A stretch of 61,443 nt of DNA, from the IMG/VR virus record IMGVR_UViG_3300036901_000131. One strand, 5' to 3'. This document shows, piece after piece, positions 7,197 through 54,164 of this stretch. Position 1 is the first letter of the stretch; every line of letters begins with the position of its first letter. The notes beneath the pieces were generated by a model that worked only from the letters and a program-made list of their open reading frames with translations, was not told the DNA's origin and searched no databases. A program made the translations under genes and the position numbers. This DNA is from a virus.

Positions 7197-10079
7197 TTAT
7201 GCGTTTGCTTCGAATGTTAAAAATCCCAACCAGTTCAACTGAACGTCTTCACCCGTGACGGTGACTTGCAATTGGTTGGAGACGATTGTCAGGGTTGGTA
7301 CTGACCAGTCAGCAGCACCTCCGGTGCTGTTTTCAAGTGTGTATACAGGTGATGTTCCAATGAAGGAGTAATCTCCTGCATTATTACAGATGACGAATGA
7401 TGGTGCAAGGACAAACGTCGCCGCGTTGGTGGCATCATTGTTTATGATGATGGTTGGATCGTAACCAATGACCGATCCGGTGATTCTGGCGAGACTAAAA
7501 GCTATCAACGCCGGTAGATTGTTCGCTCCTGGAGTGTCCGAGTCCGTGGTGAGAACGACCGGAGAGACCGCATCAACACCACCAGAAAAATCGTATCCCG
7601 TAGTGCCTTGAGAACCATTGCTCATGATCGTGGAAGGACCACCGCCATTATAGCCGGTCGTGAAACCATCAGGCATGGCATTTGTGATGTCCTGCATGGT
7701 TGTCGTGACGTTACCATCGGAATCTGTCGCCAGATTGATGGTGAGATCAGGGGTTGAGAAGACGATTGAAAGGCTCTGGTTGTCGATACCAGAGGTGTCA
7801 TTGATGACGAGTACATAGCTGTTTTCGGCATTGCCCGCTGACGGTGCGGTGACGTAATAACTCCAAGGGTTGCCGGTATCACTGGTCCAATTGACCACGG
7901 CATTCGTTCCAGGGATGGTGATGCCAGAGACTTTTTGTTCATGCTTGGTTGGCGTATTGTCACAGAGATAGGACGTGGGAACGCCACGAACAACGAAATC
8001 ACCCGAACAGAAATCTCGCCCACCTCGGCCAAGAACCACAGAATTGTCATAATAGACACTAGCGTCATCGCCAATGGCGACGGCACCAGCGATGCCACTG
8101 CTGATACTACCCATGATCGCGACGTTGTTTGAACCAATCGCCTGATTACCATAGCCGATGACAATGCTTCCGAGTGCGGCATTGTTATAGGCACCAATGG
8201 CTATGCCTGAGGTGTAGCTTCTCGCATCATATCCAACCACGATACCGTAGCTTTGGGCTACGTAAGAACTCCCGCCAATTACCACCGAGCCAACTAATCC
8301 TACGCCCTTCGCTTTGCCTCCGATTGCCACCGCGCCATAGCCTTCAGAATAAGCTTTATAGCCAACGGCGATACCGCCGCTATGATCTGAAGCGGTTGCC
8401 GCTTTAAATCCGAGCGCGACCGCGTAGTTCCCCCCACAGCCAGTATAGGCACCGATGGCCACCGAACCCAGACCTGAAACGGTAGCTTGTTTGCCTATGG
8501 AGATCGCGTAGGGAGCATTGTTCGCAACTTCAAAACCAAGCGCGATGCCATATGGTTCTGAAACTGTACTGGAAGCACCAATCAAGATACCAAAAACCGC
8601 AGGACTTTCGATTTCTGAGGACAGACCGCCGATCAGGATACCGTTTGTGGCCGCATTGATGGCCGGGGTGCTCGCGAGGGTGATCGCGTTGTCTGCGGTA
8701 GAGCCTCCATAACCAATCGCGATTGCATAATTCGCTACTGCATAACTTGACTTTATGGCAAGTGAAGTATTTCCCAAGGCGACTGTGTAGCTAGATTCTC
8801 CGAAAGGGCCGCCGATTGCTATCGAGCCATTTTCCGCCTTGGCCTGACTGCCGATGGCGATTGACCAATCATCAAAAGTTTTGGCTTTGTAGCCGATGGC
8901 AATGTTAATAGAACCAACCGCGTATGACTGAGCACCGATGGCGATGTTGTAAGCAGATGCTATCGTCACATGAGAACCGATGGCGATGGAGTTTTGTCCA
9001 TAAGCTTCGACGGAATAGCCAATCGCAACAGAATAGGAGGAGTTGATTCTGTTCGACATGCCAATGGAGATTGAATGGCCGGTACCACTTTCCAGATCAG
9101 TATTACTACCGATGACCACTGATCTTTCTCCCATCGATGACGTGTAGCCGCCTATCGTGATGGCAAAATCCGCACCTGGCTGGGCGAGTATTCCAATGGC
9201 TATCGCGTTATTCGCGGAAGCATAGGATTCGCCACCAATGGCGATGCCGTAGTAATTGGTGGCATTTGCATGATCCCCAATGGCGATGGTAGAAAAGCCA
9301 GAAGAACTGGATGAGTACCCGATGGCGATCGTATTATTGTTGGTGGAATGCGCCTGTGACCCAATCCCTATCGCCTGGGGGCCGTAGGCATGAGCCTGTC
9401 GTCCAATCGCGATGGAGTTAACATAAGTTGCTCTTGAAGAATATCCTATAGATACATCGTAAGTACCAGTGGTCGTGGCATGAACACCGATGGAGATTGT
9501 GTTCTGATTACCGGCGTAGGCTTCGGCCCCGATGGCTATGGAATAATTATCAGCCACATAGGAACTCTCTCCGATGGCGATCCCGCTACTACCAGTGTTT
9601 TTAGCTGAAAGACCGATAGCAATGGACTTTTGATTGAGCGCGTAAGCCTGCGTTCCGAGCGCGACTGCATTATCCGCGTACGCATGAGTATGACGCCCTA
9701 TCGCGATGGACGCATTATAGGATGCTTTTGAAAAATATCCTATTGCCATGTCGTAAGTACCAACAGTCGTGGCATGCACGCCAATGGCTATGGTATTGTC
9801 ATAAGCGGCGTACGTTTCGGCACCAATCGCGATGCCGAAAAAATCTCTGGCATCCGCGCTCTTGCCAATGGCGATGCCACCATAATTCCCGGCTGATGCA
9901 CCTTCACCAATGCCGAAATTACCCAGTTCACTGTATCCGGTTGGCGATCCAATGTAGGTTGAAATCGCGCTGATAGTCGTTTTCGCGTTGCTGCCGCTCT
10001 GCACGACACCGAGGATTTCCGTTCCGGTCAGTGTGTCGGCGACGGGTAGCGCGGAGGTTGTTGAATTCGATCCACTCAT
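7197..10079 (-). CDS. tail fiber protein with YadA-head/Hep_Hag-like 14-residue repeats
   Basis: 960 aa. The central region is dozens of ~14-residue repeats (…NSIAIGxxAxAxGxx… with IAIG/VAIG/VALG every 14 residues), as in trimeric-autotransporter head and phage fiber beta-roll repeats. The N-terminal approximately 45 aa (ATLTGTEILGVVQ…TTISAISTY) and the C-terminal domain are shared with the adjacent 767-aa paralog. Confidence 0.7.
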   Translation of the reverse strand: MSGSNSTTSALPVADTLTGTEILGVVQSGSNAKTTISAISTYIGSPTGYSELGNFGIGEGASAGNYGGIAIGKSADARDFFGIAIGAETYAAYDNTIAIGVHATTVGTYDMAIGYFSKASYNASIAIGRHTHAYADNAVALGTQAYALNQKSIAIGLSAKNTGSSGIAIGESSYVADNYSIAIGAEAYAGNQNTISIGVHATTTGTYDVSIGYSSRATYVNSIAIGRQAHAYGPQAIGIGSQAHSTNNNTIAIGYSSSSSGFSTIAIGDHANATNYYGIAIGGESYASANNAIAIGILAQPGADFAITIGGYTSSMGERSVVIGSNTDLESGTGHSISIGMSNRINSSYSVAIGYSVEAYGQNSIAIGSHVTIASAYNIAIGAQSYAVGSINIAIGYKAKTFDDWSIAIGSQAKAENGSIAIGGPFGESSYTVALGNTSLAIKSSYAVANYAIAIGYGGSTADNAITLASTPAINAATNGILIGGLSSEIESPAVFGILIGASSTVSEPYGIALGFEVANNAPYAISIGKQATVSGLGSVAIGAYTGCGGNYAVALGFKAATASDHSGGIAVGYKAYSEGYGAVAIGGKAKGVGLVGSVVIGGSSYVAQSYGIVVGYDARSYTSGIAIGAYNNAALGSIVIGYGNQAIGSNNVAIMGSISSGIAGAVAIGDDASVYYDNSVVLGRGGRDFCSGDFVVRGVPTSYLCDNTPTKHEQKVSGITIPGTNAVVNWTSDTGNPWSYYVTAPSAGNAENSYVLVINDTSGIDNQSLSIVFSTPDLTINLATDSDGNVTTTMQDITNAMPDGFTTGYNGGGPSTIMSNGSQGTTGYDFSGGVDAVSPVVLTTDSDTPGANNLPALIAFSLARITGSVIGYDPTIIINNDATNAATFVLAPSFVICNNAGDYSFIGTSPVYTLENSTGGAADWSVPTLTIVSNQLQVTVTGEDVQLNWLGFLTFEANA

Positions 10080-10090
10080 TTAAATATTCC

Positions 10091-12394
10091 TTACTGATTG
10101 GATTCGAGTTTGAGAAAAGCCATCCAACCGATGCTGCCAACTCCTTGATCCTGAACGGTGATCGTGAGCACAGCATCGGCACCAGAACCAACCACGGTCA
10201 GGGCCGGAACCGTCCAATCGACTGCGCCGTCCGTATTGTTCTGTAATGTGAACGTTGGCGTTCCAATGAACTGATAGGTGCCACTACCATCCTTGTAACA
10301 AAGCACCGGAGCGAGGGAGAAGCTGGCCGCGTCAGCGGAGCCTTCCCAGAGAGCGGCTTCATAAGCGATCACGGTTCCGTACAAATTCGCCATCGTGTAA
10401 TAAGTCATGGCTGGTGTGTTGGTGGTCGTCGGACTGTTGCCGTCGACTGTCAAAACGACTGGTCCCGATGTGGTATCAACACCGCCGCTCAGATTGGTCG
10501 TGCTGATCCCGGCAGAAAATGACTGCGTGCCGTCCGTGAAAGTCATCGACATTGGTGCTAAGCTAAAACCATAATCACTTATTGGAAGAGCCGATACGTT
10601 TCCTTCGCTATCGGTAGGGAGATAGATTATTACGGAATCATAACCAGCATCGACAAAAGCCTCTTGATTCGCTGCTGGGCTTGGATCGATGACCGTGAAT
10701 GTCAGGGAGTTTCCCGCACTTCCGGGAGTATTGGCGGTCATGGTCACGCTTGAATCACCCACGGTGAAACTAAAACTGGCGGCGGTTTCCACCGATGTCT
10801 TACCGGCCAGTTTTATCCAGGTCTCGTTGGGTTTGAACGTACCGTTGTAAGTATTTGGATAGCCTGCAATAACGAAACTTCCCATGGTTCGGTCGATGCC
10901 ATGACCAATCACGACGGAATGCGGATAATGGCTGCTCGCGCCGTAACCAATCGCGATGGCATTTTCCGCTGTAGCCATAGCACCAAAACCAATTGCGATG
11001 GCATAAGTTTCCGTCGCTTGAGTAAAAGCACCAAGCGCGGTGGCATAATTCCCGTATCCGTGAGCACTAACACCAAGCGCGACGGCACCCTGCTCCATCG
11101 CTTTGGCATCGTAACCGAGCGCGGTGGCAGCAGTCACAAACGCGACGGTGTGATAACCAAGGGCGACTGTCTTTTCGCCATGGGCATAACTATTGTCACC
11201 AATCGCGATGCCATACAGCGCTGATTTGACTGAGACGTAAGCACCAATCCCTATGGCACAAATTGAGCCAGCGATGTAAACACTACTGCCGATGGCGATT
11301 GAAGTATTGGAGTCCGCATCCACTCTGGCGACATTACCAATGGCGATTGCGTTAACATTACCAAATGAATTTGCGAGGTTTCCAATCGCAACTGAGCCAC
11401 CATGAGCGTAGGCTTGATACCCTATGGCCAGTGCGTAGGTTCCCTTGGCGACCGCCTTGAAGCCCATGGCGATGGATTTCAAGCCATAAGATTCTGAATC
11501 TGCACCAAGCGCGATGCCATACAACGCGGCATCAGCGGCATAAGCGAAGCCACCGATGGTGATCGAATATGTTCCTTTCGCGACGGTGCCGTAGCCAAGC
11601 GACGCGACTCCGCCAGCAGTAATGGCCGCGCCACCACCCACCGCCGTCGCTTTGTCACCTGAGTTGACGCAGTAAGGACCTATCGCGATGGTGTAATCTG
11701 AAGTCGCGGTCGCGTGATAACCAACGGCGAGCGCTGACGTTCCATTCGCGGTACTCTTCTCGCCGACAGTGACCGTGTGATTACCAATGGCGTAGGCTTT
11801 GTAACCAATCGCGACCATCGAGCTACCCGATACGCCAAACGCCTGATGCCCGATTATCACGCTGTAGCTGCCGTAGGATTCCGCATGGGCTCCAATGGCT
11901 ATCGAGTATCCTGTTTCTCCTCTGCATTGCGCGGCTGCGCCGATAGCGATGCCAAAGGGATTGGCCTGCGAATTATAACCCATGGCGATGGCTGCCGGTC
12001 CAAAAGCACCGGCAACTACCCCGATGCTGATCCCATGAGCGTCTGCAACATATGCATGATAACCGAGCGCGATTGTGTAACCAGTACCGGCAATCGCGTT
12101 ATAACCTAGCGCGGTCGCGTTACTGCCTTGGGCGGCGGCATTCCGGCCAACAGCCACTCCATTGGATGCGACTGATGTGCTTTCCCAACCTATCGCGACC
12201 TGACCGACATCCGACCCATTGACAGCGGCGTCTTCGCCGAACACCACGTTCTCGCCATTCAACGCTGCAACGGCGTAGGTCGAGATAGCGGTCAAGGTGG
12301 TTTGCACATCTCCCGCATCCTGAACAACGCCGATGATCTCGGCTCCAGTCAGGGTTGCGGCATCCGGAAATTGCGTGGTTTTTAAATTAGCCAT
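10091..12394 (-). CDS. tail fiber protein paralog (Hep_Hag-like repeats)
   Basis: 767 aa. N-terminus MANLKTTQFPDAATLTGAEIIGVVQ…TLTAISTY and C-terminus (…DWTVPALTVV…LTITVQDQG…FLKLESNQ) are homologous to the 7197..10079 product. Central repeats follow the pattern AIGxxAxAxG. Confidence 0.7.
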   Translation of the reverse strand: MANLKTTQFPDAATLTGAEIIGVVQDAGDVQTTLTAISTYAVAALNGENVVFGEDAAVNGSDVGQVAIGWESTSVASNGVAVGRNAAAQGSNATALGYNAIAGTGYTIALGYHAYVADAHGISIGVVAGAFGPAAIAMGYNSQANPFGIAIGAAAQCRGETGYSIAIGAHAESYGSYSVIIGHQAFGVSGSSMVAIGYKAYAIGNHTVTVGEKSTANGTSALAVGYHATATSDYTIAIGPYCVNSGDKATAVGGGAAITAGGVASLGYGTVAKGTYSITIGGFAYAADAALYGIALGADSESYGLKSIAMGFKAVAKGTYALAIGYQAYAHGGSVAIGNLANSFGNVNAIAIGNVARVDADSNTSIAIGSSVYIAGSICAIGIGAYVSVKSALYGIAIGDNSYAHGEKTVALGYHTVAFVTAATALGYDAKAMEQGAVALGVSAHGYGNYATALGAFTQATETYAIAIGFGAMATAENAIAIGYGASSHYPHSVVIGHGIDRTMGSFVIAGYPNTYNGTFKPNETWIKLAGKTSVETAASFSFTVGDSSVTMTANTPGSAGNSLTFTVIDPSPAANQEAFVDAGYDSVIIYLPTDSEGNVSALPISDYGFSLAPMSMTFTDGTQSFSAGISTTNLSGGVDTTSGPVVLTVDGNSPTTTNTPAMTYYTMANLYGTVIAYEAALWEGSADAASFSLAPVLCYKDGSGTYQFIGTPTFTLQNNTDGAVDWTVPALTVVGSGADAVLTITVQDQGVGSIGWMAFLKLESNQ

Positions 12395-14828: not shown

Positions 14829-15188
14829 TCAGAACCTTTCAGCGTTCCTGAACGCTTCTGTCTTACCATCAGCCAGCACGAATGTCACACTGTCATAATC
14901 GTACTCGAACGCGAGATTGACCTCGCGCGTGTTGTTCTTGATGTAGCGCACCCAGATCGACCACTTGCCCTGAATGTTGTTGAACAACCATCGGTTCAGC
15001 AGACTGACAGGATGCGGAATCTCGGTGACGATGAACCGATGTCGGCTCCAGTCGAGCGGGATGATACCGCGATGCCATCGATCAGCGAGATCATCCGGAT
15101 CGAACTCAAGTCCGGTGAAACAGACCTTGGAGGGAATCAATTGCTGATCACAAAAACAGTCTTCATGTTTGGTTTTGGCCCGAACCAA
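14829..15188 (-). CDS. hypothetical protein
   Basis: 119-aa ORF co-directional with the operon. The overlapping plus-strand 189-aa ORF has antisense-like composition. Confidence 0.35.
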   Translation of the reverse strand: MVRAKTKHEDCFCDQQLIPSKVCFTGLEFDPDDLADRWHRGIIPLDWSRHRFIVTEIPHPVSLLNRWLFNNIQGKWSIWVRYIKNNTREVNLAFEYDYDSVTFVLADGKTEAFRNAERF

Positions 15189-15225
15189 GCGTCATCAACT
15201 AATATGCTTTTGCATTCGGCGACCG

Positions 15226-15474
15226 TCATCCGGCGCAACTTTCCAGGGAGTTCATCCGAGCGTCGAGACGATTTTCGACATCGGTGATGTCCTGTTGCAG
15301 GCGATTTTCAAGGTCGTTGATGTCCTGCTGGAGGAGGGATATCTCTTCTTGAAGGCCGGAAACATCCAATTCGAGGTCGCCAATCTTCTCTTGTTGGCGT
15401 GCGTTTTCTTCTTGCAGTTCCTCGAAGTTGTAATTCAGGAATGCAAAATCTTCGATGGTGTCAATTCTATTCAT
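15226..15474 (-). CDS. coiled-coil protein
   Basis: Start trimmed to the internal ATG at 15474 (MNRIDTIEDF…), which lies 2 nt downstream of the VWA-protein stop codon (15467..15469). Heptad-like repeats DINDLENRLQQDITDVENRLD. Confidence 0.35.
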   Translation of the reverse strand: MNRIDTIEDFAFLNYNFEELQEENARQQEKIGDLELDVSGLQEEISLLQQDINDLENRLQQDITDVENRLDARMNSLESCAG

Positions 15475-16711
15475 GAAAAATTTCCTTTGGTTCGTAGTAG
15501 CAAACTTGGCCGTATGATGGCTTGGCACGCGGATTCGAGTGAATGATGAACAGAGTATCACAAAAATCCTCGTCACCCCAATCATCATCGACATAGCCAT
15601 CGGTGAAAATCAGCAATCTGTGCGGCTCGATCTCATGTTCCTTCATGTACTCCCAGCAGCAGGAGGGCACCGTGCCGCCACCGCCACGGAAGGGATAGTC
15701 GTAGATTTCATCCGCGTTATCCGGTGTGAAGGTCATGACATTGTAGACCTCGGTGTCAAAGGTTCCGATGATCAGTTCAAAATCCGCGAACGTGCTGATG
15801 ATGCCAGCGCACTCGGAGAGGAAATCGGTGACCATCTCCTTCGTGGTTGACGCGGAACCATCTAGGAACGCCGCCGCCTTCACTTTCTCCTGGACATCCG
15901 AACCCGGCAGGATGAAACCAGTGGACCAGAACCGGCGTGACAATCGCATGTAAGTGTAGTCATATTTGATCGCTGAGCGCAGTACATTATCCAGCATCTT
16001 CCGCCAATCGATCTTGTGTTCCAGCAGTTTATTGAGCATCCGTAGAATGCCAGCCGGTATTTTGCCGGGATCGACATTGGGTTGTTGCGCCGCCTGAATG
16101 AGCGTGGTGCGAATGTTGTTCCGGATATCCTCCATTTCTTCCGAGGTGAGGACCGGTGGACCATCGCCTTTCTGACCATCGCTGTGCTTGAGGTCTTTCT
16201 GTCCATCTCCACCGCCGTTGCCATCAAGATGCATGTCGAGTGGCATCTGAATCTTGACCTGTTTCCTTTCCAGCAGGGCGTAGAGTTCCTCGGCGCTGAA
16301 ATCATCGGTATAATCCGGATCGAACAATACTCGGACTATCGGTGGCTTGTTTTTGATCTCGCGACCGATCATCTGACCCTGACTGTCCTTGGTGGTCAGT
16401 AAGGTGTAATTCACAAGGTAGTCGATGGCCATCCCCCAAATATCTGGATTTCTGTTGCCGCATCTGAACATGTGGTTAAAAACGCAATGAAGAACTTCAT
16501 GAGCGGTCAACCAGATCAACTCTTCGCGATCCAGTTGCTTGACGAAGTCCCGATTGTAGTAGAAGAACCGGCCATCAGTGGCCGCCGTCAGACACCAGGT
16601 GACTTCCTTCAGTTCGAGATGCAGGATGATGGGGCCGAAGATCGGCCATTCCAACAGCAATCTGACACGGGCTTTTTGGAGTTCAATGAGAACCGGATCG
16701 GTGTTCCTCAA
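15467..16711 (-). CDS. VWA-domain protein with N-terminal HExxH metallopeptidase-like domain (DUF2201/CoxE-like, CobT-like partner of the AAA+ ATPase)
   Basis: WLTAHEVLHCVFNH (HExxH) lies in the N-terminal DUF2201_N-like region with a C-terminal VWA-like region. Start overlaps the MoxR gene stop (ATGA). Confidence 0.65.
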   Translation of the reverse strand: MRNTDPVLIELQKARVRLLLEWPIFGPIILHLELKEVTWCLTAATDGRFFYYNRDFVKQLDREELIWLTAHEVLHCVFNHMFRCGNRNPDIWGMAIDYLVNYTLLTTKDSQGQMIGREIKNKPPIVRVLFDPDYTDDFSAEELYALLERKQVKIQMPLDMHLDGNGGGDGQKDLKHSDGQKGDGPPVLTSEEMEDIRNNIRTTLIQAAQQPNVDPGKIPAGILRMLNKLLEHKIDWRKMLDNVLRSAIKYDYTYMRLSRRFWSTGFILPGSDVQEKVKAAAFLDGSASTTKEMVTDFLSECAGIISTFADFELIIGTFDTEVYNVMTFTPDNADEIYDYPFRGGGGTVPSCCWEYMKEHEIEPHRLLIFTDGYVDDDWGDEDFCDTLFIIHSNPRAKPSYGQVCYYEPKEIFHE

Positions 16712-18072
16712 ATGATCATATCCTTGTACTCTTTGGCGAATTTCTTGAATTCTTCCATGTTCTTCTGATCGAATCGCAACTCATAAATCTTCATGGCCAT
16801 TTTGTGAAACATGATCATGACTTCGGGGGTGAAGTTGCGCAGCGCATACCCGATGGCCCGATCAGCCCGATCAGCCCACTTCTTGCGTTCCGGACTGGAA
16901 TCTATCCGCAGTCTGTCGCCGCGATATTTCTTGTCTACGACATCGGATTCCTTCTTCAGTTCGTATCCCATTTGCACGCATGTCGAATAGGCGATCTGGG
17001 TGCGAAACTTGTTATCCTTGGGATTGAAGGCGGTCACGCTGCCATCGAAAATTCTCTGGACATTCGGCATGTCTTCCATGAATTCACGATGCTGTAGAAA
17101 GGCCGTGCCACCGACATTACCGATGGCTCCGCACACTTCTGGTTTGATGACGTGGGGTGGGCCTGGTTTGCTGACGATCCGGGAGACGAATTCCCATGTG
17201 CGTGGGCTGCGGAAGCTGTTTTCCGGATGGTTGGCAAAATCCTCATCGAACAAATGCGATGTCCATTTCGCGAGATAACCGACCACATCCGAGTGCATGC
17301 CGTTGAGCACCGCCCATTTCTGCCAGTCCTCGTGATTGACCTCCATCTCGATGTGATCGAAGCGATTGGCGACTGGTTTGAGCAGTTTGTAGGTGAGACC
17401 TTTATCACCATCGCGGTTGCCCATGGCGAGGATCATCACGCCATCCGGCACGACGTAATCACCAATGCGTCGATCCAGCACCAATTGGTAGGCAGCCGCC
17501 ATGACGTTGGGTGGGGCCGAGTTGAATTCTTCGAGGCCGAGGATGGCTTCGGATTTTCCGGTGATGGTCCAGAGCACCTTGCCGGAGGTCAGGCGATCAT
17601 CCGCGTCCGTGACGATGACAACGAAATGGTTGGGTTTCTTTTCGATGAGGCGAGCATTCTTGCCAGCCTCGACGGCCTTGACCCTGATATCGGGATTCGT
17701 GCAATATGGTATGCTATTGTTGCCGATGGGATTGTAGAATTTGACAATCTCCGTCTCATGGACATCGACGATCTCGACGAGGTCAAGATCACGTGGGAAA
17801 ACCAATGGTGGGGTCCAGATCAGTCCGCGCATGCCGCCAATGGTTTCCACGAACGGCACGCCACGGATGTCCTCGGGCGCGACCGAGGTCAGACGAAAAT
17901 CGATGAAGGCGATGTCAAGCTCGTCGGCGACCTGGCGGGCGACCGCTGACTTGGAGATGCCTGGCGCACCATGGACATAGAGGGAAATCCCGGTCCCTCG
18001 CATGTGCTTGATGATGTCGGAGACGTATGACGGACGTACTTTATTGAGGGCTAAATCTAAATCTGTTGGCAT
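16708..18072 (-). CDS. MoxR/CobS-like AAA+ ATPase
   Basis: Walker A motif LYVHGAPGISKSAVARQVA. AAA_5/MoxR-like architecture of 454 aa. Paired with the VWA protein. Confidence 0.75.
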   Translation of the reverse strand: MPTDLDLALNKVRPSYVSDIIKHMRGTGISLYVHGAPGISKSAVARQVADELDIAFIDFRLTSVAPEDIRGVPFVETIGGMRGLIWTPPLVFPRDLDLVEIVDVHETEIVKFYNPIGNNSIPYCTNPDIRVKAVEAGKNARLIEKKPNHFVVIVTDADDRLTSGKVLWTITGKSEAILGLEEFNSAPPNVMAAAYQLVLDRRIGDYVVPDGVMILAMGNRDGDKGLTYKLLKPVANRFDHIEMEVNHEDWQKWAVLNGMHSDVVGYLAKWTSHLFDEDFANHPENSFRSPRTWEFVSRIVSKPGPPHVIKPEVCGAIGNVGGTAFLQHREFMEDMPNVQRIFDGSVTAFNPKDNKFRTQIAYSTCVQMGYELKKESDVVDKKYRGDRLRIDSSPERKKWADRADRAIGYALRNFTPEVMIMFHKMAMKIYELRFDQKNMEEFKKFAKEYKDMII

Positions 18073-18127
18073 TCCTCAATTTAAGCCGTTGACCGTGTCC
18101 TGGTCAATCATTGTTTGATGATAACGA

Positions 18128-18487
18128 CTAATCAATTTTCATGAGTAGTGAGAGACGGCCCTCGACCAGTTTGAGTTTGATGCCAATCCAGTGATCGTAG
18201 ACGACTATCTCGTCCTTGCCACAATAGTACGGCATCTTGGCGTGCTGATCGAGATAGATCATGTGCGCTGGCTTGAATTGTTCATCATCCGGGACCTTGA
18301 TCTCGTAGCCTCGGAAGTGTTTCCGCATGATCTGAATACCGAGGATCGTCAGCCGAAGTCCCTTACCGGCGCGATAATTGAAGAACATCTGGCGCAGAAT
18401 CTGTTCATCGGTCAATGGCAGGAGAAATTCTTCGATGGCCGTTTTTCGGATGTGTGAAACGATGGCCAGATGGATTTTATTCTCCAT
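18128..18487 (-). CDS. hypothetical protein
   Basis: 119-aa ORF, co-directional. Confidence 0.4.
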   Translation of the reverse strand: MENKIHLAIVSHIRKTAIEEFLLPLTDEQILRQMFFNYRAGKGLRLTILGIQIMRKHFRGYEIKVPDDEQFKPAHMIYLDQHAKMPYYCGKDEIVVYDHWIGIKLKLVEGRLSLLMKID

Positions 18488-18770
18488 CTTCCTCGATGAC
18501 GGTTCCTGCGATCAGCATGTGCACCGCGAATTTATCAGTCTTGAATATTACATTCAACTTATTTTTCAAGTTGTGCGCGTGGCCAGCATTGGGGAAACTC
18601 GACTTCTTGTACTTGGCACCGAGATCGATGATCGTATGCAGTGACCTCAGATTGATCGGTTGATCGTCATAAAACACCGCGTAGATGGCGTCCGCGAGCA
18701 GAACCTGCTCCGCCTTATAGGTCTTCGGATCAGTGAACGACAAAAGGATTTTTGGTTTTGGACGTGACAT
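18477..18770 (-). CDS. hypothetical protein
   Basis: 97-aa ORF overlapping the downstream gene by 11 nt. Confidence 0.4.
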   Translation of the reverse strand: MSRPKPKILLSFTDPKTYKAEQVLLADAIYAVFYDDQPINLRSLHTIIDLGAKYKKSSFPNAGHAHNLKNKLNVIFKTDKFAVHMLIAGTVIEEDGE

Positions 18771-18841
18771 CTGAAATCCCCGAATAGAAAGTCGGGGGTT
18801 TAAAAGTCCCGTCTCCGTCTTTATTTATCTGCGCAGTTATT

Positions 18842-19162
18842 TTAGATCGACTCTGGACTGACCAATAAGGGATATTCGTGCTGTCTGGCCAACGCATTCG
18901 TCATGTCGGCCTTATGACTGGCAACCTCGAAGGTATAACTGCCGACCCTGGCCTTACCCTCCCGATGAATCTTCAACATCGTGACAGTCGCGTCATCCAG
19001 TGACAGATTGAAAATACTGATCAAAACTTGGACGACGAACTGCATAGCTGTGAAGTCGTCGTTAAGAATGATGACGCAGTACATCGGTGGTCGCTTGTGT
19101 TTTGGTTTGGTGAGCGTCCTGCCGTCTTCGTTTATATCACCGAAATATTCATGGATTGTCAT
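18842..19162 (-). CDS. clpS: ATP-dependent Clp protease adaptor ClpS
   Basis: KPPMYCVIILNDDFTAMQFVVQVLISIFNL…LKIHREGKARVGSYTFEVAS aligns with E. coli ClpS ([28 protein letters not shown]…[20 protein letters not shown]). Confidence 0.8.
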   Translation of the reverse strand: MTIHEYFGDINEDGRTLTKPKHKRPPMYCVIILNDDFTAMQFVVQVLISIFNLSLDDATVTMLKIHREGKARVGSYTFEVASHKADMTNALARQHEYPLLVSPESI

Positions 19163-19584
19163 TGTGGTTTCCTAATCGTATCTGATTTATCCAGGTAGTC
19201 GAACCAAAAGTCTTTGCCGTTGTCGCTTGGTATCAACCTGTAATAGATGTCATGATCGTATTCGGCGTCCGTGCTGGATGTGCCACCGCCCCCCGCAACG
19301 GAGTCGTTCGTATTGCCGCCATTGGTGTCGTTGGTATCATCTGGACCAAAGCCTTTGATGCTGGCCGCGCACATCCTGATCAACCCGTTGGTGTCCAGTG
19401 TGGTGACCGTATCCTCGTCGATTTCCACCCTGTTGGGTGCCCAATCGTCATTATTTCCCCATTGCCAGTCCGATTTCAACAAATCTTTGATGAATGTCAT
19501 GACCTTTGGTGCGTTGCACGGCATGGGTTGAGCATGCGCGGTCGTGATGAACAAGGAAAGCAGAACTCCGCCGAGGATTTTCAT
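19159..19584 (-). CDS. secreted hypothetical protein (signal peptide)
   Basis: MKILGGVLLSLFITTAHAQP leader. Start overlaps the clpS stop. Confidence 0.45.
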   Translation of the reverse strand: MKILGGVLLSLFITTAHAQPMPCNAPKVMTFIKDLLKSDWQWGNNDDWAPNRVEIDEDTVTTLDTNGLIRMCAASIKGFGPDDTNDTNGGNTNDSVAGGGGTSSTDAEYDHDIYYRLIPSDNGKDFWFDYLDKSDTIRKPQ

Positions 19585-19629
19585 GATTGACTTCCAAAAT
19601 CCGAAAGTACCTTTCCCGTCAGTGAAAAA

Positions 19630-20058
19630 TCAAGCTGAAATTTGGATTTCCTTCGCTTTCTGGATGTCTGGAATCTGTCGGATCAGGTCAATTTCCAATA
19701 GTCCGTGTTCCAATTTGGCGGATTCGACGATCACGTGTTCGCCGATCATGAATTCGCGAGAAAAATCCCGATACGCTATGCCTCGATAGAGAATCACATG
19801 TTCGGGTTCGACGAGGCCATCAATCGCTATTTGCGAGGGCGTTTCCTTGCTGCCACGAATGGTCAGAAGTTCGCCTTGCAGGATGATGCTGAGATCAGTT
19901 CGGGTGAATCCGGCCACCGCCAGGGTCAGGCGGTATTTATCCTTGCCGATATGCGTGATGTTGTGCGGCGGGAATTTGTTCGCCGCGTTGCGTTCGAAAA
20001 ATCGTGGGTCGAGGCCAACACTATGTTTTAACACAGTGTCCATGGCGTTAGCGTTCAT
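19630..20058 (-). CDS. ibpA: small heat-shock protein, Hsp20/alpha-crystallin family (IbpA-like)
   Basis: YRLTLAVAGFTRTDLSIILQGELLTIRG…LYRGIAYRDFSREF…LEHGLLEIDLIRQIP aligns with E. coli IbpA ([28 protein letters not shown]…LYQGIAERNFERKF…LVNGLLYIDLERVIP). Start set at MNANAM (20058), preceded by AGGAGGTG. The ORF track extends to 20103. Confidence 0.8.
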   Translation of the reverse strand: MNANAMDTVLKHSVGLDPRFFERNAANKFPPHNITHIGKDKYRLTLAVAGFTRTDLSIILQGELLTIRGSKETPSQIAIDGLVEPEHVILYRGIAYRDFSREFMIGEHVIVESAKLEHGLLEIDLIRQIPDIQKAKEIQISA

Positions 20059-20205
20059 TGTATCACCTCCTAAAAGCGAAGTTTCGGCCCTGCGTTCAGG
20101 CACCGAACGAATATTTATTCAAAATACATAGTTCGCTGTGCTTGCGACCAGACGCGATCCGTCGTATGATGAGACTTCGTTGCTCGAACTATAAGGGATA
20201 TCCTC

Positions 20206-20817
20206 ATGCCGTTGGACGTAGCAGGCTTCCCGATTCAGGTGTCATCGCTGACTGATGTTCTGAAGTCGCTTGGCATCGCGCCCATACCGCGCGAAGTTCT
20301 CGCCCGACACAAGAAATCGGAAATCAAGAAACACCCCGCGCACTGGGCCGCGCCGATCCTTCACCTCTATCGTGACTCGGTCGCTTACATAGGCACGGCT
20401 TTCGTGTGCAGCATCGTCGCGGCCATCGTGGTCTTCACCTATGACCTGGTGACCTGGCATCTACTGCTGGGAACCATCCTGGGGCCGATTCTGATGTTCG
20501 TCTTGCCGATACTCATGTTGTTCGGCATGGTCGTACTCGATGGCATACGGATAAGTGTCAAGGATAAAGCCGAATGGGTCGAGAGCAAGGCCATCCTGCG
20601 TGGCACGGACAACATTCCGTGTGAGATCGCGAACCTCGGCAAGGCCATTCTCAAGGAGCAGCCCACCGCCGCCTTCGTCAAAGGCACGCTGGTGCAGAAC
20701 AATGTCACCCTCGATCCCTATCTGATCGTCAAGGATGGCGCTGATGAAGCGGTTCTGGGCATCTGGGATGACAACGGCATCCTGCTGATCGCCGCTCGAC
20801 CCGCTCACTTTCGATAA
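20206..20817 (+). CDS. membrane protein (2-3 TM helices), hypothetical
   Basis: 203 aa with hydrophobic segments (AYIGTAFVCSIVAAIVVF, LLLGTILGPILMFVLPILMLFGMVVL). Confidence 0.45.
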   Translation: MPLDVAGFPIQVSSLTDVLKSLGIAPIPREVLARHKKSEIKKHPAHWAAPILHLYRDSVAYIGTAFVCSIVAAIVVFTYDLVTWHLLLGTILGPILMFVLPILMLFGMVVLDGIRISVKDKAEWVESKAILRGTDNIPCEIANLGKAILKEQPTAAFVKGTLVQNNVTLDPYLIVKDGADEAVLGIWDDNGILLIAARPAHFR

Positions 20818-20855
20818 TCCAGTGAAAACAGGGGCATTTTTTGCCCCTGTTTTTG

Positions 20856-21437
20856 TCAGGCTTTGGCGGCTTTCATCAGATCAGCTTTGGAGATCATCGG
20901 CGCGAGGATGATCGTCATGTCGGCGTCGCCGTCAGACAACGATCTGTCGATCTTGTGATCGCCAATCGCGTGCAGGAACCGTTCGACGATTTGTCTGCCC
21001 CAGTCCCGGTGGGTGCGTTCCCGGCCTCGGAATCTCACCACCACTTTCACCTTGTCACCTTCGTCGAGGAAGCCTCTGGCGCGTTTCACCTTGATCATCA
21101 TGTCATTGTCGTTGGTGACAGGGCGCAGTTGAATTTCCTTGGTATCCACCATCATCTCGCGTTGACGTTTGGCCAATTCCTTTTCGGTTTTTTTCTTCTC
21201 GAAGCGGAATCGATCCGCGTCCAGCACCCGACAGATCGGCGGATCGGAGTCAGTCGCCCCAGGAGCCACCACGACAAGGTCAAGACCTTGGTTGCGGGCC
21301 TTTGAGAGCGCATCATGAAATGAGAAAATACCAAGTTGCCGGTCACCGTCGAGGAGACGTACCGTGCGAGCACGAATGTGCTCATTAATGACGAAATCAG
21401 TAGCCAAGTGTAAACCACATGTGTTGAAAAAATCCAA
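20856..21437 (-). CDS. infC: translation initiation factor IF-3
   Basis: INEHIRARTVRLLDGDRQLGIFSFHDA…PPICRVLD…TKEIQLRPVTNDNDMMIKVKRARGFLDEGDKVKVVVRFRGRE…MTIILAP aligns along its full length with E. coli IF-3 (INGEIRAQEVRLTG…PPVCRIMD…[20 protein letters not shown]…ITLRFRGRE…MIMVLAP). Confidence 0.85.
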   Translation of the reverse strand: MDFFNTCGLHLATDFVINEHIRARTVRLLDGDRQLGIFSFHDALSKARNQGLDLVVVAPGATDSDPPICRVLDADRFRFEKKKTEKELAKRQREMMVDTKEIQLRPVTNDNDMMIKVKRARGFLDEGDKVKVVVRFRGRERTHRDWGRQIVERFLHAIGDHKIDRSLSDGDADMTIILAPMISKADLMKAAKA

Positions 21438-21595
21438 TGAGAATGAAATTATTTATATACCATACATAACAATTGCATGTCTAAGGCTAATTTTTCTGAC
21501 AGTTGACATCCGGTCGGCCATCGGTAATCATGGCAGCGCTCTTTGAACCGTGCATCGCCTCTCCTGTCGTCCGCCCTACCGGGCGGATTCGGCTG

Positions 21596-22221
21596 TCCTC
21601 GGATGGCTTCAAAAAACGCGGGTAAGACGCGAGTATACGCACGGCCAAATGGTCACGAAAAATGTAACATGGCGCTGAACATCTCGGTTATCCTGAGGTT
21701 TGGATGGCCACGAAAATATCAGTATAAAAGCCATGTCTCGGCTATCCTCTGGATGGCCACGAAAACTAGCGCGGCACTAGGTTGCTTTTCCCTTGGTTAT
21801 CGCGAGATGGCCACGCAAAAACTTATGACTTCATACACGGCTTGATGGCCACGAAAATGAAAGGAATGCTTTGGATGATTTGGCTATCCTAGTCGGATGG
21901 CTATGAAAACGAATGGTCGAACACTGCGGGTCTCATTTTGGCCACGGAAAATAGTAGGCCGCAGCCTGGCTGTGAGGCGACTGTCCGGTTATCCTGACTT
22001 TTGGATGGCCACGAAAACAGCGTGATTTCACCGTTGCCGACTGGGCCGAGGTCTACGAAAACACCTTTGGACCGTGGGCGAGTCGGCTATCCCGTTTTGG
22101 GATGGCCACGAAAATACCAAGACACATCCCACATGTGTTTGAAGGCTATCATTCCATGATGGCCACGAAAATTATCCTGCTTCCGAGGCATACCAGAATC
22201 GGCCATCATTTTGGCTATCAG
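21596..22221. repeat. array of at least 10 degenerate direct repeats: GGYTATCC-N3-8-GGATGGCC-ACGAAAAY units separated by unique 22-33 bp spacers
   Basis: Core GGATGGCCACGAAAAY or close variants start near 21647, 21702, 21751, 21804, 21843, 21895, 21939, 22002, 22049, 22100 and 22158 (about 40-63 bp apart). Most copies carry an upstream GGYTATCC forming an 8-bp imperfect inverted repeat with GGATGGCC, whose only non-Watson-Crick positions are T.G on the plus strand. All copies share one orientation and lie between two minus-strand genes. Confidence 0.6.
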
Positions 22222-23099
22222 ACGAAGAAATCGTTGTCCACGAACATGCCGCAGGATGCCTTTACGGAAAAACCAACGCGAGGCACGATCTTGCTCCTGA
22301 CGGAGAGGCGCTCCTTGATGATCGCCAGATTTTTCTGGATCACCGGCTCCGGACTTTCGCGACTTTTCTCATTGGGCGGATTGTAGCGCACGAGGTTCAC
22401 CCGCACGTTCAGACCATACTGTTCCACCGCGTCACAGATCGCCTGCACATCGGCCTCCCGGTCATTCTCGCCGTCGATGAACGCCCAGTGCAGCACGATC
22501 TCCCGCTTCTGGGATTTCTGCCACTCGGACAACAGATCGAGGCCGTGGCCGACCGGCAGAGCCCTCGGCAGCCAGCGTTTGCGGAATTTCTCGTTCATGC
22601 TGTAGATGGAATAATAGAACTCGACCGGAGAGCCGCCGAACGCCTGTACCAGGGTGTAGCGGAAGTCCTGTGGCATGATGGTCGAGATGTTGAATTTGGC
22701 GCGTAGCCCCCTCTGGCGGGCCATGCAGGACAGACAGCCGATGATCTCCTGATTGTCCTCCAGCAGATGCGGGTTCGACAGCGCCTCGCCACGTGACATC
22801 CAGTTGACGTGCACTGAATCAGCATGGCCCTGATCATCCGCGACGGCGTCATAATAGGTCAGTACCTGCAAGGCTTGTTCGAGATACAAATCCATGTCAA
22901 CCGGCTCGAACGAAGTCTGCCCGGTGGCGGTGAGATGACACATGCGACAGGCATGCTTGCAGCCGGTGTGTGATGACAGGTAGACGATGAAGTAATCGTC
23001 CGTGCGTCGAACATAGCGGGTTTCGATGTAGCCTTCCTTCATCTGGCGGATGAAATTGACCGATCTGTCCTCATCGGACTTGAGAATGTTCCATTTCAT
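22218..23099 (-). CDS. radical SAM enzyme, RlmN/Cfr-like (short form)
   Basis: GCKHACRMCHL is the CxxxCxxC radical-SAM cluster motif. The C-terminal VNLVRYNPPNE…GFSVKASCGMFV resembles RlmN/Cfr (NLIPFNP…AACGQL, with the conserved C-terminal Cys). At 293 aa it lacks the RlmN N-terminal domain. Confidence 0.55.
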   Translation of the reverse strand: MKWNILKSDEDRSVNFIRQMKEGYIETRYVRRTDDYFIVYLSSHTGCKHACRMCHLTATGQTSFEPVDMDLYLEQALQVLTYYDAVADDQGHADSVHVNWMSRGEALSNPHLLEDNQEIIGCLSCMARQRGLRAKFNISTIMPQDFRYTLVQAFGGSPVEFYYSIYSMNEKFRKRWLPRALPVGHGLDLLSEWQKSQKREIVLHWAFIDGENDREADVQAICDAVEQYGLNVRVNLVRYNPPNEKSRESPEPVIQKNLAIIKERLSVRSKIVPRVGFSVKASCGMFVDNDFFV

Positions 23100-23623
23100 G
23101 AATAATCAAACTCAAACAATTCGTTCATCTTCCTCAAATCGTCGACGTGACAGCAAAAACGATCCCCAAATCGGAAGTTGCGTTTTGGCAACTCAATGAG
23201 ATCGTCATGCACGTACCAGCCGACAAGATCGAAGGCGGTTTCTATCGAGCCGCGCACGACCACGTAGATGTTGGCCCAGCGTTGCGGCTCATGCGGATTG
23301 ACGATCAGGTTGCCGGTCAGACGAGGGCCTGCGCCATCCATGCCAAGATGGATGACTTCCACGGTCATGCCGTGGAAGGTGAAATCCGATCCACCGTCAC
23401 CATGCGTGTCATAAATCTCTGAGTTGAACTTCTGTTGGAACGCGTCCGCCGCGAATTTTTCCGCCTCGTATGCCTGCCGGTCGGTCTGCGCGCTGGTCCG
23501 GCTGCCGTCCTTGCGAATGTCGGAAATGCCAGCGTCTCTTTTAGCGTGATACCGTTCACTCCCGTCCGTCATAGGAATTTTCCCTGACATGCATGTCACG
23601 AATAGTATTACGCAAACCAGCAC
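23096..23623 (-). CDS. hypothetical protein (start uncertain, possibly an internal ATG)
   Basis: 175-aa ORF. The N-terminal hydrophobic stretch may be spurious. Overlaps the downstream gene by 4 nt. Confidence 0.35.
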   Translation of the reverse strand: MLVCVILFVTCMSGKIPMTDGSERYHAKRDAGISDIRKDGSRTSAQTDRQAYEAEKFAADAFQQKFNSEIYDTHGDGGSDFTFHGMTVEVIHLGMDGAGPRLTGNLIVNPHEPQRWANIYVVVRGSIETAFDLVGWYVHDDLIELPKRNFRFGDRFCCHVDDLRKMNELFEFDYS

Positions 23624-23738
23624 GTTGTTGTTTCATGAACCTATAAAGCAACAAGCCTACCTGAGTGCGGCATGAATCATCATCTGCCAAACCTTCTCGC
23701 AGCACATCGGCGATGAGTTCTATCTCCATGTCGGTCAT
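23556..23738 (-). CDS. hypothetical small protein
   Basis: 60-aa ORF, coupled (4-nt overlaps) with its neighbours. Confidence 0.3.
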   Translation of the reverse strand: MTDMEIELIADVLREGLADDDSCRTQVGLLLYRFMKQQRAGLRNTIRDMHVRENSYDGRE

Positions 23739-23992
23739 GTCATCTCCACCAGACCGGCGAGCGAAAATTCGGTCAGGTCCATGTGAATGGCCAGTACCTT
23801 GATGCGCTGAATGGTCTCTTTCGGTACTGGTTTCCCACTCAGGATATCGGCCAGGGTCTCCAACGCGATCTCAAACTCCCGATGATCACACCAGTAATCG
23901 ACTTCCGCCTTTTCCTCGACGGATAAGTCACAACTTGTCATCAACGCCTCGAATATCCGCTCTGTCTCGGACCATGTAAAATCATCAGTCAT
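23735..23992 (-). CDS. hypothetical acidic protein
   Basis: 85-aa ORF. Confidence 0.35.
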   Translation of the reverse strand: MTDDFTWSETERIFEALMTSCDLSVEEKAEVDYWCDHREFEIALETLADILSGKPVPKETIQRIKVLAIHMDLTEFSLAGLVEMT

Positions 23993-24003
23993 GTAATACT
24001 ATC

Positions 24004-25242
24004 CTACGAAGTTGCCGCAATCGCCTTATATACGACATCGGGTTCCGTGCCGTCAACAATCGTGGCTTTCCGTACGATGATTTCAGAGATGCCCTTCGCT
24101 TTCATGTCAGGCAGATCGAATTGTGTCCGCAACAGTCTGGATTCGAGGACACTGCGCAGGGCGCGTCCATTGGTCTTGCGCGTGCGTGCCAGCCTGGCGA
24201 CCGCCTGCAAGGCATCGGCATCGAATGTCAGGTCAATCCCGTCCAATGCGAACATCTTTGAATATTGCTTGATCAGGGCGTTTTTTGGCTCGGTGAGAAT
24301 GCGCACCAGTTGATCCTCATCGAGTTCGTCCAGCATGGTGATCACCGGCACGCGTCCGATCAATTCCGGGATCAAACCAAATTTGATCAGATGTTCCGGC
24401 TCCACGCGACGGAACGAATCCTTGGATTGTATTTTTTGTTTGTCGACCTTCGCACCATAGCCGATGCTGGTCTCTTCCTGTTCGAGGATTTTATCCAGGC
24501 CGACGAAGGCTCCGCCCAGGATGAACAGGATGTTGTGGGTGTTGACCTTCACGAGGTCAGCGTTCGGGCCGCGCCGGTTGCCCGATGCCACCATGGTCTC
24601 GGTACCTTCCAGGAGCTTCAGGAGAGCCTGTTGGACACCTTCGCCGGTCACATCCTTGTTGGATGATCCGGTGACCTCGCGGCTGCGCTTCTTGTCGATC
24701 TCGTCGAGGAAGATGATGCCTCGCTCGGCTTTCTTCACGTCGTTGTCAGCGGCCTGAAGCAGGCGTGAGATGATGCTCTCGACATCATCACCAACGTATC
24801 CGGCCTCGGTCAACGAGGTGGTATCGACGATGGTGAGTGGAACATCCAACATGCGGGCGATGGATTTCGCCAGCAGGGTCTTACCAACCCCGGTCTGGCC
24901 GATCATCAGAATGTTTGATTTGTCGATCTCGATGCCGTCGATGACGGGATTTTCGAGTCTCTTGTAGTGGTTGTAGACGGCGACGGAGAGGACTTCCTTG
25001 GTATGGTTCTGACCGATCACATACTGGTCGAGATAGTCCTTGATCTCTCTGGGGTAAGGTGTGGTCGACTTGGTTTTGGTCAGAATGACTTTGTCTTTTT
25101 CATAACTGTTGAGAACTTCTGTGCATTTCCCAACACATTCATCACAGATGAATCCAGTTTCTCCCTGAATTAATCGCTTAACTTTCTGGGAAGATTTTGA
25201 ACAAAATGAACACTTAAGCAGCTTTTGAGAATTAGCCATCAT
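24004..25242 (-). CDS. clpX: ATP-dependent Clp protease ATP-binding subunit ClpX
   Basis: N-terminal zinc-binding domain (LLKCSFCSKSSQKVKRLIQGETGFICDECVGKC versus E. coli [33 protein letters not shown]). Walker A motif GQTGVGKTLLAKSIARML. Start moved to MMANSQ (25242), preceded by GGAAGG. The track's 25302 start adds 20 unlikely residues. Confidence 0.85.
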   Translation of the reverse strand: MMANSQKLLKCSFCSKSSQKVKRLIQGETGFICDECVGKCTEVLNSYEKDKVILTKTKSTTPYPREIKDYLDQYVIGQNHTKEVLSVAVYNHYKRLENPVIDGIEIDKSNILMIGQTGVGKTLLAKSIARMLDVPLTIVDTTSLTEAGYVGDDVESIISRLLQAADNDVKKAERGIIFLDEIDKKRSREVTGSSNKDVTGEGVQQALLKLLEGTETMVASGNRRGPNADLVKVNTHNILFILGGAFVGLDKILEQEETSIGYGAKVDKQKIQSKDSFRRVEPEHLIKFGLIPELIGRVPVITMLDELDEDQLVRILTEPKNALIKQYSKMFALDGIDLTFDADALQAVARLARTRKTNGRALRSVLESRLLRTQFDLPDMKAKGISEIIVRKATIVDGTEPDVVYKAIAATS

Positions 25243-25298
25243 GAAAAAAAGCCTTCCACAGGACCTTATATTTATGTGCGAAACGAAAAGTTCAAATA

Positions 25299-40837: not shown

Positions 40838-41566
40838 TTACTGGGTGATCTCGCCAAAGAAAGCGAGCTTGTTACTCTTGGAACGCCACAGCATCGCCGA
40901 ACGTCCGCCGTACAATTTACCCTCCTCGTCGCTCGCGCGGGTGCTCGTGGTCTTCGTCCCGGTGGGTTCGATGAGGTCTTCCATCTTACGGCGGAATTTC
41001 GCCTGATCGACCTCATGTCCCATCAGCGATTCATAGACTTTTTGCAGGCTGGTGATGGCGAATTCCCGAGGCATGAGAAACAACGGCAGGGTTGAGTAGT
41101 GGGCTTTGTCGCGAATACGCTTGACCGCGTAATAGATGATTTTCTTGTGATCGAAAGCCAGTTTCTGTGGCAAATTATCGACCGGGAAAAAATCAGCCTG
41201 ATTGTCCGGAGTCTTGATCATGGCGATGTACGCCAGTGACGCCGACCAACCACGCGGATCACGCTTCCTGCCACTGAACATGGCGAGTTGCTCAAGATGC
41301 GAAACTCTCATCTTGAATTTCGTCAGCATCGCGCGTTTGGCGGCGGCGTGGGTATCATTATCGTCATCAGTGTGAATGACCGTGCCAACGAGACCACGAA
41401 CCCCCTCATAAGGTTCACGATCACGCACCGGTAGCAAGACATGCAGACGCGCCGGTTCTCCTTCGACATCGGCGATCAGGGCGAACAAGACCACGTCAAC
41501 AGTCATGAGTGGCCGCTCGAATTCGTACTCATATGTGGTGGCCACTGCTTCCGGCGATCTGGACAC
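40838..41566 (-). CDS. Nudix-fold protein, NrtR-like (Nudix plus C-terminal winged helix)
   Basis: N-terminal PLMTVDVVLFAL…LHVLLPVRDREPYEG…LVGTVI resembles Nudix beta-strands. The C-terminal LPLFLMPREFAITSLQKVYESLMG resembles the NrtR wHTH region. Confidence 0.45.
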   Translation of the reverse strand: MSRSPEAVATTYEYEFERPLMTVDVVLFALIADVEGEPARLHVLLPVRDREPYEGVRGLVGTVIHTDDDNDTHAAAKRAMLTKFKMRVSHLEQLAMFSGRKRDPRGWSASLAYIAMIKTPDNQADFFPVDNLPQKLAFDHKKIIYYAVKRIRDKAHYSTLPLFLMPREFAITSLQKVYESLMGHEVDQAKFRRKMEDLIEPTGTKTTSTRASDEEGKLYGGRSAMLWRSKSNKLAFFGEITQ

Positions 41567-54156: not shown

Positions 54157-54164
54157 AGAGGTAA

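Follow-up and report, generated by a model that had tools for sequence, protein, structure and literature searches.

An IF-3 gene of a huge T4-like phage lies beside a degenerate CRISPR-like array

RESULTS

The IF-3 gene and its product

The window that we analysed is the whole 61,443-nucleotide stretch of IMG/VR virus record IMGVR_UViG_3300036901_000131, and coordinates refer to it unless another locus is named. In the ORF listing, a minus-strand ORF runs from a TTG at 21437 to 20856, stop codon included. An earlier note on this DNA had described its product as a near full-length IF-3 with N- and C-terminal domains, and the profile searches bore this out, with matches far above their cut-offs. 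IF3_N (PF05198) scored 77.8 bits against a gathering cut-off of 26.9 (ORF residues 17-87, profile positions 1-69 of 70), the C-terminal 30S-binding domain IF3_C (PF00707) scored 83 bits against 34.8 (residues 97-180, profile positions 1-85 of 86), and the NCBIfam infC equivalog TIGR00168 scored 148.6 bits against 60 (profile positions 6-167, i.e. 162 of the 170 covered). Solved IF-3 chains aligned end to end with the ORF product (5me0_Y, E 4e-39, residues 3-171; E. coli IF-3 8jsg_A, E 4e-32), and the PHROG family phrog_9787 matched the whole protein (E 1.6e-46, residues 5-168 against profile positions 4-164 of 168). We thus confirmed that the ORF is an intact two-domain bacterial-type IF-3 carried by a phage.

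The gene had been placed at 20856-21437 in the earlier note. This ORF is real, but it is the longest one possible, and we moved its start by 30 nt to 21407. In the orthologous loci L003, L005 and L007, an in-frame TAA is found 5-6 codons 5' of a conserved TTG, which sits 6-7 codons ahead of the N-E-(R/H)-I-R motif and corresponds to window position 21407. The JGI gene call P0001 starts at the same codon (183 aa), and the first residue is a literal 'L', meaning a TTG start, in 19 of the 28 JGI calls of the clade whose N-terminus lies near the domain. Because the conserved TTG is bounded by upstream stops in the orthologues and coincides with the JGI call, the true CDS is most likely 20856-21407 on the minus strand (TTG at 21407-21405, TGA stop at 20858-20856; also delimited by the ORF and the Pfam and NCBIfam matches) and encodes 183 rather than 193 aa. 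The ten in-frame upstream codons (MDFFNTCGLH, 21408-21437, minus strand), where the orthologues have stops, are probably 5' leader and not coding. We also considered an AUU-type start at the ATT, ATC or ATA codon before the N-domain Asn (window, L003 and L007) and rejected it: this codon specifies a conserved hydrophobic residue in the first N-domain strand, and the same position is GTG (Val) in L005 and L008. The autoregulatory AUU start that the earlier note had raised as a point of comparison is not present, the start being a TTG that is conserved in the clade.

Within the CDS, the N-terminal domain occupies 21177-21389 and the C-terminal domain 20898-21149 (both minus strand); the latter carries the motifs KEIQLRPV and RFRGRE, both invariant in the clade. 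The segment between the two Pfam matches (21150-21176, minus strand) is the C-terminal part of a Lys/Arg-rich linker, FEKKKTEKELAKRQREMMV, whose first residues lie within the N-domain match and to which the E. coli linker aligns with a 2-residue difference in length.

Functional residues and selection

In the alignment to E. coli IF-3, residues R25, Q33 and R66 correspond to R17, Q24 and R60 of the 183-aa protein, and all three are kept in the N-terminal domain; in the clade, R17 is invariant and C59/R60 are nearly so. These E. coli residues contact the elbow of the initiator tRNA and set fidelity (PMC9723500). The hallmark IF-3 motifs are invariant in the clade alignment. In the C-terminal domain, the equivalents of E. 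coli R99, R129, R131, R133, H137 and R147 are retained and R112 is replaced by Lys. R116 is replaced by Gly with an Arg one position earlier, the same arrangement as in the best-matching solved chain 5me0_Y, and E. coli Y75 is F, again as in 5me0_Y. The equivalent of R168 is absent: the position is Ala or Asp across the whole clade, and Ala in the window protein. Eight C-domain arginines, R99, R112, R116, R129, R131, R133, R147 and R168, were reportedly identified by Petrelli et al. in 2003 as used for 30S binding in E. coli. Five of these are kept, one has a conservative change (R112), one is shifted (R116) and one is lost (R168). Given the loss of R168 and the shift of R116, it is possible that contacts with the ribosome are altered.

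Pairwise dN/dS against three orthologues was 0.09-0.16, with synonymous sites near saturation. The ORF is not a pseudogene, an outcome that the earlier note had named as fatal to its proposal: the frame is intact, dN/dS is low and the key residues are conserved. The best named cellular homologues, from Chloroflexota MAGs, are just 42-48% identical, which argues against a recent capture from a host. On this evidence the IF-3 gene appears to be an old, vertically inherited phage gene under purifying selection.

Expression signals

We found an TATAAATA box at 21450-21457 (minus strand), 43 nt 5' of the TTG. The box is promoter-like, resembling the T4 late-promoter consensus or an extended -10 element. 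L003 has the box, and L007 has TATATAAA, at a similar distance from the start. Two exact copies are present in the 61 kb against 0.33 expected. Copies with one mismatch show no enrichment (19, with 12.8 +/- 4 expected), and with so few exact copies we rejected a T4-type late promoter class. Judged from its sequence and position, the box may nevertheless act as a promoter for the IF-3 gene. The putative 5' leader that follows (42 nt, 21408-21449, minus strand) is AU-rich and predicted to be unstructured (MFE -3.2 kcal/mol, z -0.15), and no Shine-Dalgarno sequence was found in it when upstream regions were compared with those of the neighbouring genes. An Rfam search of 20500-22500 returned only sub-threshold snoRNA noise.

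Downstream of the gene, a bidirectional intrinsic terminator (20825-20853, both strands) consists of a 12-bp GC-rich hairpin with a U run on each side; the minus strand folds with -20.6 kcal/mol (z -4.5), the plus strand with -22.6 kcal/mol (z -4.8). It is common to IF-3 and the convergent membrane-protein gene at 20206-20817. Three IF-3 loci comprise 38 gene calls, and in each locus the sole TTG gene is IF-3; the other 35 comprise 32 with ATG and 3 with GTG, and by-eye reading of the upstream regions gave an ordinary Shine-Dalgarno in roughly 40% of the neighbouring genes. The IF-3 gene looks like a monocistronic transcription unit of its own, and the combination of the TATAAATA box, a leader lacking a Shine-Dalgarno, a weak TTG and a strong terminator suggests modest, controlled expression. 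With TTG in the window clade and GTG in the phages Phosso and Atu_ph07, the whole lineage avoids AUG for IF-3, yet it does so without the AUU behind autoregulation in E. coli.

Phage context and synteny

The window represents part of the genome of a huge T4-like phage, and genes near IF-3 encode a T4-type topoisomerase II large subunit (gp39) and a gp52-like subunit, T4 RNA ligase 1 (RnlA) and ClpX. When 15000-30000 of the window was compared by megablast with 50,697 phage records, no match was found; the phage has no close sequenced relative. Relatives of the IF-3 protein are nevertheless numerous in metagenomes: more than 100 are 48-75% identical, and the phage contigs that carry those at 60-75% identity reach 638 kb. 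Contigs carrying relatives include ones of 249, 378, 485, 637 and 638 kb, and IMG/VR yielded 41 IF-3 loci.

The gene order topoII-(MVP-like)-ClpX-...-IF3-...-HSP20-ClpS was found again in L003 and L005, and the isolated Sinorhizobium phage Phosso (469 kb) has a topoisomerase (topoIV/topoII)-ClpX-IF3 order. AP-J-162 has the topoisomerase-ClpX-IF3 neighbourhood too (PMC11242549). The neighbourhood of an Atu_ph07/Phosso-like lineage (topo II subunits-ClpX-IF-3) therefore occurs in the window, L003, L005, Phosso and AP-J-162, and the position of IF-3 is kept across phages whose IF-3 proteins are only 41-75% identical.

The IF-3 gene lies in a region rich in accessory genes, several of which we record here. 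Genes for proteostasis proteins surround it on the minus strand (ClpX with a zinc finger, 24004-25302; an HSP20-family small heat-shock protein, 19630-20103; a short ClpS-like adaptor, 18974-19162), and L003 holds the same ClpX/HSP20/ClpS set. The gp52-like topoisomerase subunit must start at a TTG one base after the stop of the gp39-like gene (32228-32234), as no other canonical start lies ahead of its conserved N-terminal motif. A 921-aa protein (27291-30056, minus strand) with a major-vault-protein shoulder and Vault_3 repeat domains is conserved in related phage contigs (L003, 1-782; L065, 4376-6898); in L065 its gene adjoins CRISPR-like arrays and an ADP-ribosyltransferase. Further afield are a PurA-like adenylosuccinate synthetase of 421 aa (44719-45984, plus strand) and two adjacent tRNA-Gly genes with anticodons GCC and UCC (54085-54239, minus strand). 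Four accessory genes are unusual for phages, at 833-1738 (minus), 34539-35573 (plus), 40838-41566 (minus) and 6058-6873 (minus); they encode an ADP-ribosylglycohydrolase, a CHAD-domain protein, an NrtR-type winged-helix regulator and a sulfotransferase. Two large tandem proteins of 960 and 767 aa (7197-12394, minus strand), rich in YadA-head repeats, are probably fibres or adhesins.

A CRISPR-like array next to the gene

The 780-nt gap 5' of IF-3 holds a degenerate CRISPR-like array of ~11 units (21586-22172) on the plus strand, divergent from IF-3. Each unit is a hairpin of ~8 bp, GG(Y)TATCC-loop-GGATGGCC, followed by the handle ACGAAAAY, and the spacing is 38-67 nt. The core motif has nine copies within two mismatches in the window, all of them inside the array, against 0.68 expected. 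A putative sigma-70-like promoter picked up by a consensus scan, TTGACA-17-AATCAT (21503-21531, plus strand), points into the array, and the comparable TTGACT-16-TATGGT precedes the array in L005.

The hairpins are strand-specific and point away from IF-3. G.U pairs make up 85 of the 403 stem pairs of the array hairpins, and the mean MFE was -9.4 kcal/mol in the sense and -7.4 kcal/mol in the antisense orientation (p 1e-6; -10.5 versus -6.05 for the window units). For the unit alignment we used a length-matched seed, since MAFFT misaligned the 5' arms of units with unequal loops; in the length-matched alignment all cells pair, and in four of the eight pairs both sides have changed. When no window sequence went into the covariance model (R2), it recovered five window units, all on the plus strand (E 3e-9 to 2.3e-7), and a model that included window seeds recovered 11.

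Regular arrays of a homologous unit, with identical 36-nt repeats and ~30-nt spacers, are present in L109, L129 and L132, and the L109 array follows a Cas6e-like gene (PF08798). The homologue of this Cas6e-like gene is the last gene of an operon in L166 (ENA ERZ25073662 ctg132313, a phage-like contig of 554,748 bp), where positions 4701-11731 hold a complete type IV-A CRISPR-Cas locus: Csf2-DinG-Csf3-two unassigned ORFs (209 and 253 aa)-Cas6e, then 16 identical 36-nt repeats. PADLOC typing gave Csf2 1e-12, DinG 4e-48, Csf3 2e-15 and Cas6e 4e-12. One of the two ORFs is Cys-rich and possibly Csf1-like; an ART-PolyVal gene lies near the locus, as in L065. The repeats beside the L166 Csf2-DinG-Csf3-Cas6e genes and the L109 Cas6e, both from related huge phages, are homologues of the window unit, which consists of an 8-bp hairpin and the 8-nt ACGAAAAC handle. 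Unlike the units of type IV-A arrays, those of the window differ from each other, their spacing is irregular (38-67 nt) and some 'spacers' would be only ~10 nt. No cas genes were found in the 61-kb window by tblastn with the L166 cas proteins and the L109 Cas6e, and a search for the repeat core in 185,579 bacterial genomes gave coding repeats and unrelated short tandem repeats but no host CRISPR with this repeat. The window array is thus an orphan, degenerate array of the type IV-A family.

We considered other identities for the array and rejected them. It is not a CsrA sponge, GGA not being conserved in L005, and not a set of DnaA boxes, TTATCC occurring in the window alone. The CUGAUGA of a hammerhead ribozyme is missing. 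A ToxI-like type III antitoxin is contradicted by the irregular spacing, and there is no toxN beside the look-alike 36-nt repeats in L097. Against dsDNA iterons, the distance between the arms varies, and the G.U pairs make the hairpins strand-specific. The look-alike repeats are exact 36-nt tandem repeats, GGATTGTAGCCATCCCTGGCTACGAAAAAGCAAACT, in about 3 copies, in L097 (2430-2545) and in L085 (Cloacimonadales MAG OY782781.1). Their hairpin and tail resemble the phage unit, they have neither spacers nor an adjoining toxN or cas gene, and the resemblance may be due to chance.

Related arrays lie beside IF-3 in L005, on the same strand as IF-3, and in L006, while L003 has none by its IF-3, and the association of array and IF-3 looks positional rather than regulatory. 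The maintenance of the hairpins hints at some remaining function, for instance in processing or as a decoy; the array might be a functional hairpin RNA (e.g. a decoy for Cas6 or a crRNP) and not a fossil. A search of the literature turned up no relevant paper on such hairpin arrays in jumbo phages.

Beyond the array lies a second translation-related gene near IF-3, encoding a Cfr/RlmN-like radical-SAM enzyme of 293 aa (22218-23099, minus strand). The protein has the CxxxCxxC cluster motif (CKHACRMC) and a C-terminal catalytic Cys (SCG), lacks the N-terminal domain and has no Pfam match; it matches Cfr (9p0p, E 6.6e-8) and phrog_27142 (E 8.5e-101). It is related to the Cfr/RlmN rRNA/tRNA adenine methyltransferases. 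L003 has an ORF of about this size (291 aa, no Pfam match on record) at the corresponding position, directly before IF-3.

DISCUSSION

We consider it very likely, with a probability of roughly 0.85, that the gene is a functional, vertically inherited IF-3 orthologue of a huge T4-like phage lineage and supplements or replaces the IF-3 of the host. The data show what the protein is, that its domains are intact and its functional residues conserved, that the gene is under purifying selection, and that it lies in a phage context with shared synteny; from this we infer that the protein binds the 30S subunit, when it would be expressed and how the phage would benefit. In the proposed mechanism, the C-domain would bind the host 30S subunit and the N-domain would monitor the initiator tRNA and the start codon, like the cellular factor. 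During a long infection with host expression shut down, the phage IF-3 could top up or replace that of the host, which would maintain a supply of free, recycled 30S subunits able to initiate accurately on phage mRNAs.

Could the protein instead be a selective factor, as the earlier note had suggested? It would then shift the selectivity of the 30S subunit (for the start codon, for leaderless or Shine-Dalgarno-less leaders or for the initiator tRNA) and phage mRNAs would outcompete those of the host. The clade does have a signature of its own: the R168 equivalent is lost, the N-terminus is short and not basic, and the C-terminal tail is conserved. TTG starts, the lack of a Shine-Dalgarno or both are seen in some phage genes, IF-3 and the gp52-like gene among them, and redirected translation has been proposed in the huge-phage literature (PMC7162821). 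However, all known residues that read the tRNA elbow are conserved, and UUG translation is hardly changed by excess IF-3 in E. coli extracts: a 10-fold excess in vitro affected UUG mRNAs only marginally and GUG mRNAs slightly, and strongly repressed AUU (PMC5499595). The earlier note had tied the TTG and GTG starts in the window to discrimination by IF-3. The TTG of the gp52-like gene is real, but the link is weak, because excess IF-3 barely affects UUG; the IF-3 gene itself starts with TTG. Most neighbouring genes (32 of 35) start with ATG and, in our own reading, ~40% have an ordinary Shine-Dalgarno, so no phage-specific initiation signal is evident. A selective role is unlikely in our judgement. 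In a more elaborate scenario, which we regard as doubtful, the IF-3 of this clade has become a factor dedicated to take-over. The conserved UUG start and the lack of a Shine-Dalgarno in the leader would allow it to be made when host-type initiation is compromised, and through the changes in the clade (loss of the R168 equivalent, an N-terminus that is not basic, an additional tail at the C-terminus) the selectivity of the 30S subunit or the reactivation of ribosomes would be retuned to phage messages; together with the Cfr/RlmN-like enzyme it would form a 'ribosome-retooling' module.

Two further explanations deny the gene a role in the phage or the phage itself. Phages do pick up host genes, and the surroundings of IF-3 are rich in accessory genes, so the gene might be a recent host capture or a decaying pseudogene, a passenger with no role for the phage. 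The intact frame with both domains above their cut-offs, the dN/dS of 0.09-0.16 at near-saturated dS, the position conserved across phages and the identity of at most 48% to named cellular proteins make this highly improbable. Alternatively, the window could be part of a bacterial chromosome or megaplasmid and the gene the cell's own infC, given that IF-3 is universal in bacteria and that ClpX, ClpS and HSP20 are cellular-type genes. Yet the infC-rpmI-rplT operon is missing, the flanks contain T4-type gp39/gp52, T4 RNA ligase 1 and phage-only PHROGs, the closest loci are IMG/VR viral contigs as well as contigs of 485-638 kb that share these phage genes, and the locus is syntenic with the isolated phage Phosso; we give a bacterial origin almost no credence. 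A functional IF-3 that supplements or replaces the host factor remains our preferred reading, and we compare it below with known IF-3 systems.

In its two-domain architecture, linker and length, the phage IF-3 is like bacterial IF-3 (E. coli 8jsg_A; 5me0 and 5lmn chains), and the motifs NExIR, PP(V/I)CR, KEIxxRP and RFRGRE are common to both. It differs from bacterial IF-3 in having no basic N-terminal tail, in the loss of the R168 equivalent and in a 4-residue insertion (ATDS) before PPxCR. A non-canonical AUU, AUA or AUC start and the infC-rpmI-rplT operon are the regulatory hallmarks of bacterial infC. The phage gene starts with TTG, in contrast to the autoregulatory AUU of E. coli infC, and we found no such operon at the phage locus, with no L35 or L20 genes; its flanks are the CRISPR-like array and the convergent membrane-protein gene.

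Among phages, the closest parallels are the 470-490 kb jumbo myoviruses Phosso, AP-J-162 (Sinorhizobium) and Atu_ph07 (Agrobacterium), which have an annotated IF-3, a topo II-ClpX-IF-3 neighbourhood and a non-AUG start, as in the window. Their IF-3 proteins are 41-44% identical to that of the window. The genes of Phosso and Atu_ph07 have a GTG start, an AAGGAG Shine-Dalgarno and a TTGACA-type promoter, whereas the window clade has TTG, no Shine-Dalgarno and the TATAAATA box. The regulatory features of the clade are thus unlike both those of bacterial infC (AUU, L35/L20 operon) and those of the Atu_ph07 type (GTG and Shine-Dalgarno). The IF-3 and IF-1 of metagenomic huge phages (Al-Shayeb et al. 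2020, PMC7162821), phrog_9787 and the IF-3 of Rak2-like jumbo phages belong to the same family and have the same proposed role in translation take-over or support; the window clade is a different sub-lineage. Phage bS21 (PMC9723584), whose gene also lies beside the Phosso locus, is another initiation-related 30S component in large phages with an analogous rationale, but it is a ribosomal protein and not a factor, and has no homology to IF-3.

How rare is a viral IF-3? The earlier note had called it rare, and per record it is: tblastn found IF-3 in 96 of 50,697 phage records, some of these records tiny and unannotated. But it recurs in jumbo phages, forms a PHROG family and has been published. 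Annotated examples are found in Atu_ph07, Phosso, RaK2-like phages, large Escherichia and Vibrio phages and others, and IF-3 in huge or jumbo phages has been treated before (PMC7162821, PMC7824862, PMC11242549). Phage IF-3 is already known, and what is described here is a new member together with a sizeable, well-conserved and previously unnamed sub-lineage, which adds more than 100 metagenomic relatives, in genomes of up to about 640 kb, to the phage IF-3 set. The locus is a concrete, testable case for the question whether the initiation factors of phages only supplement those of the host or reprogramme its ribosomes. Current understanding is unchanged, and an IF-3 is ordinary for a huge phage; the degenerate type IV-A-like array and the Cfr/RlmN-like gene may be more original than IF-3 itself.
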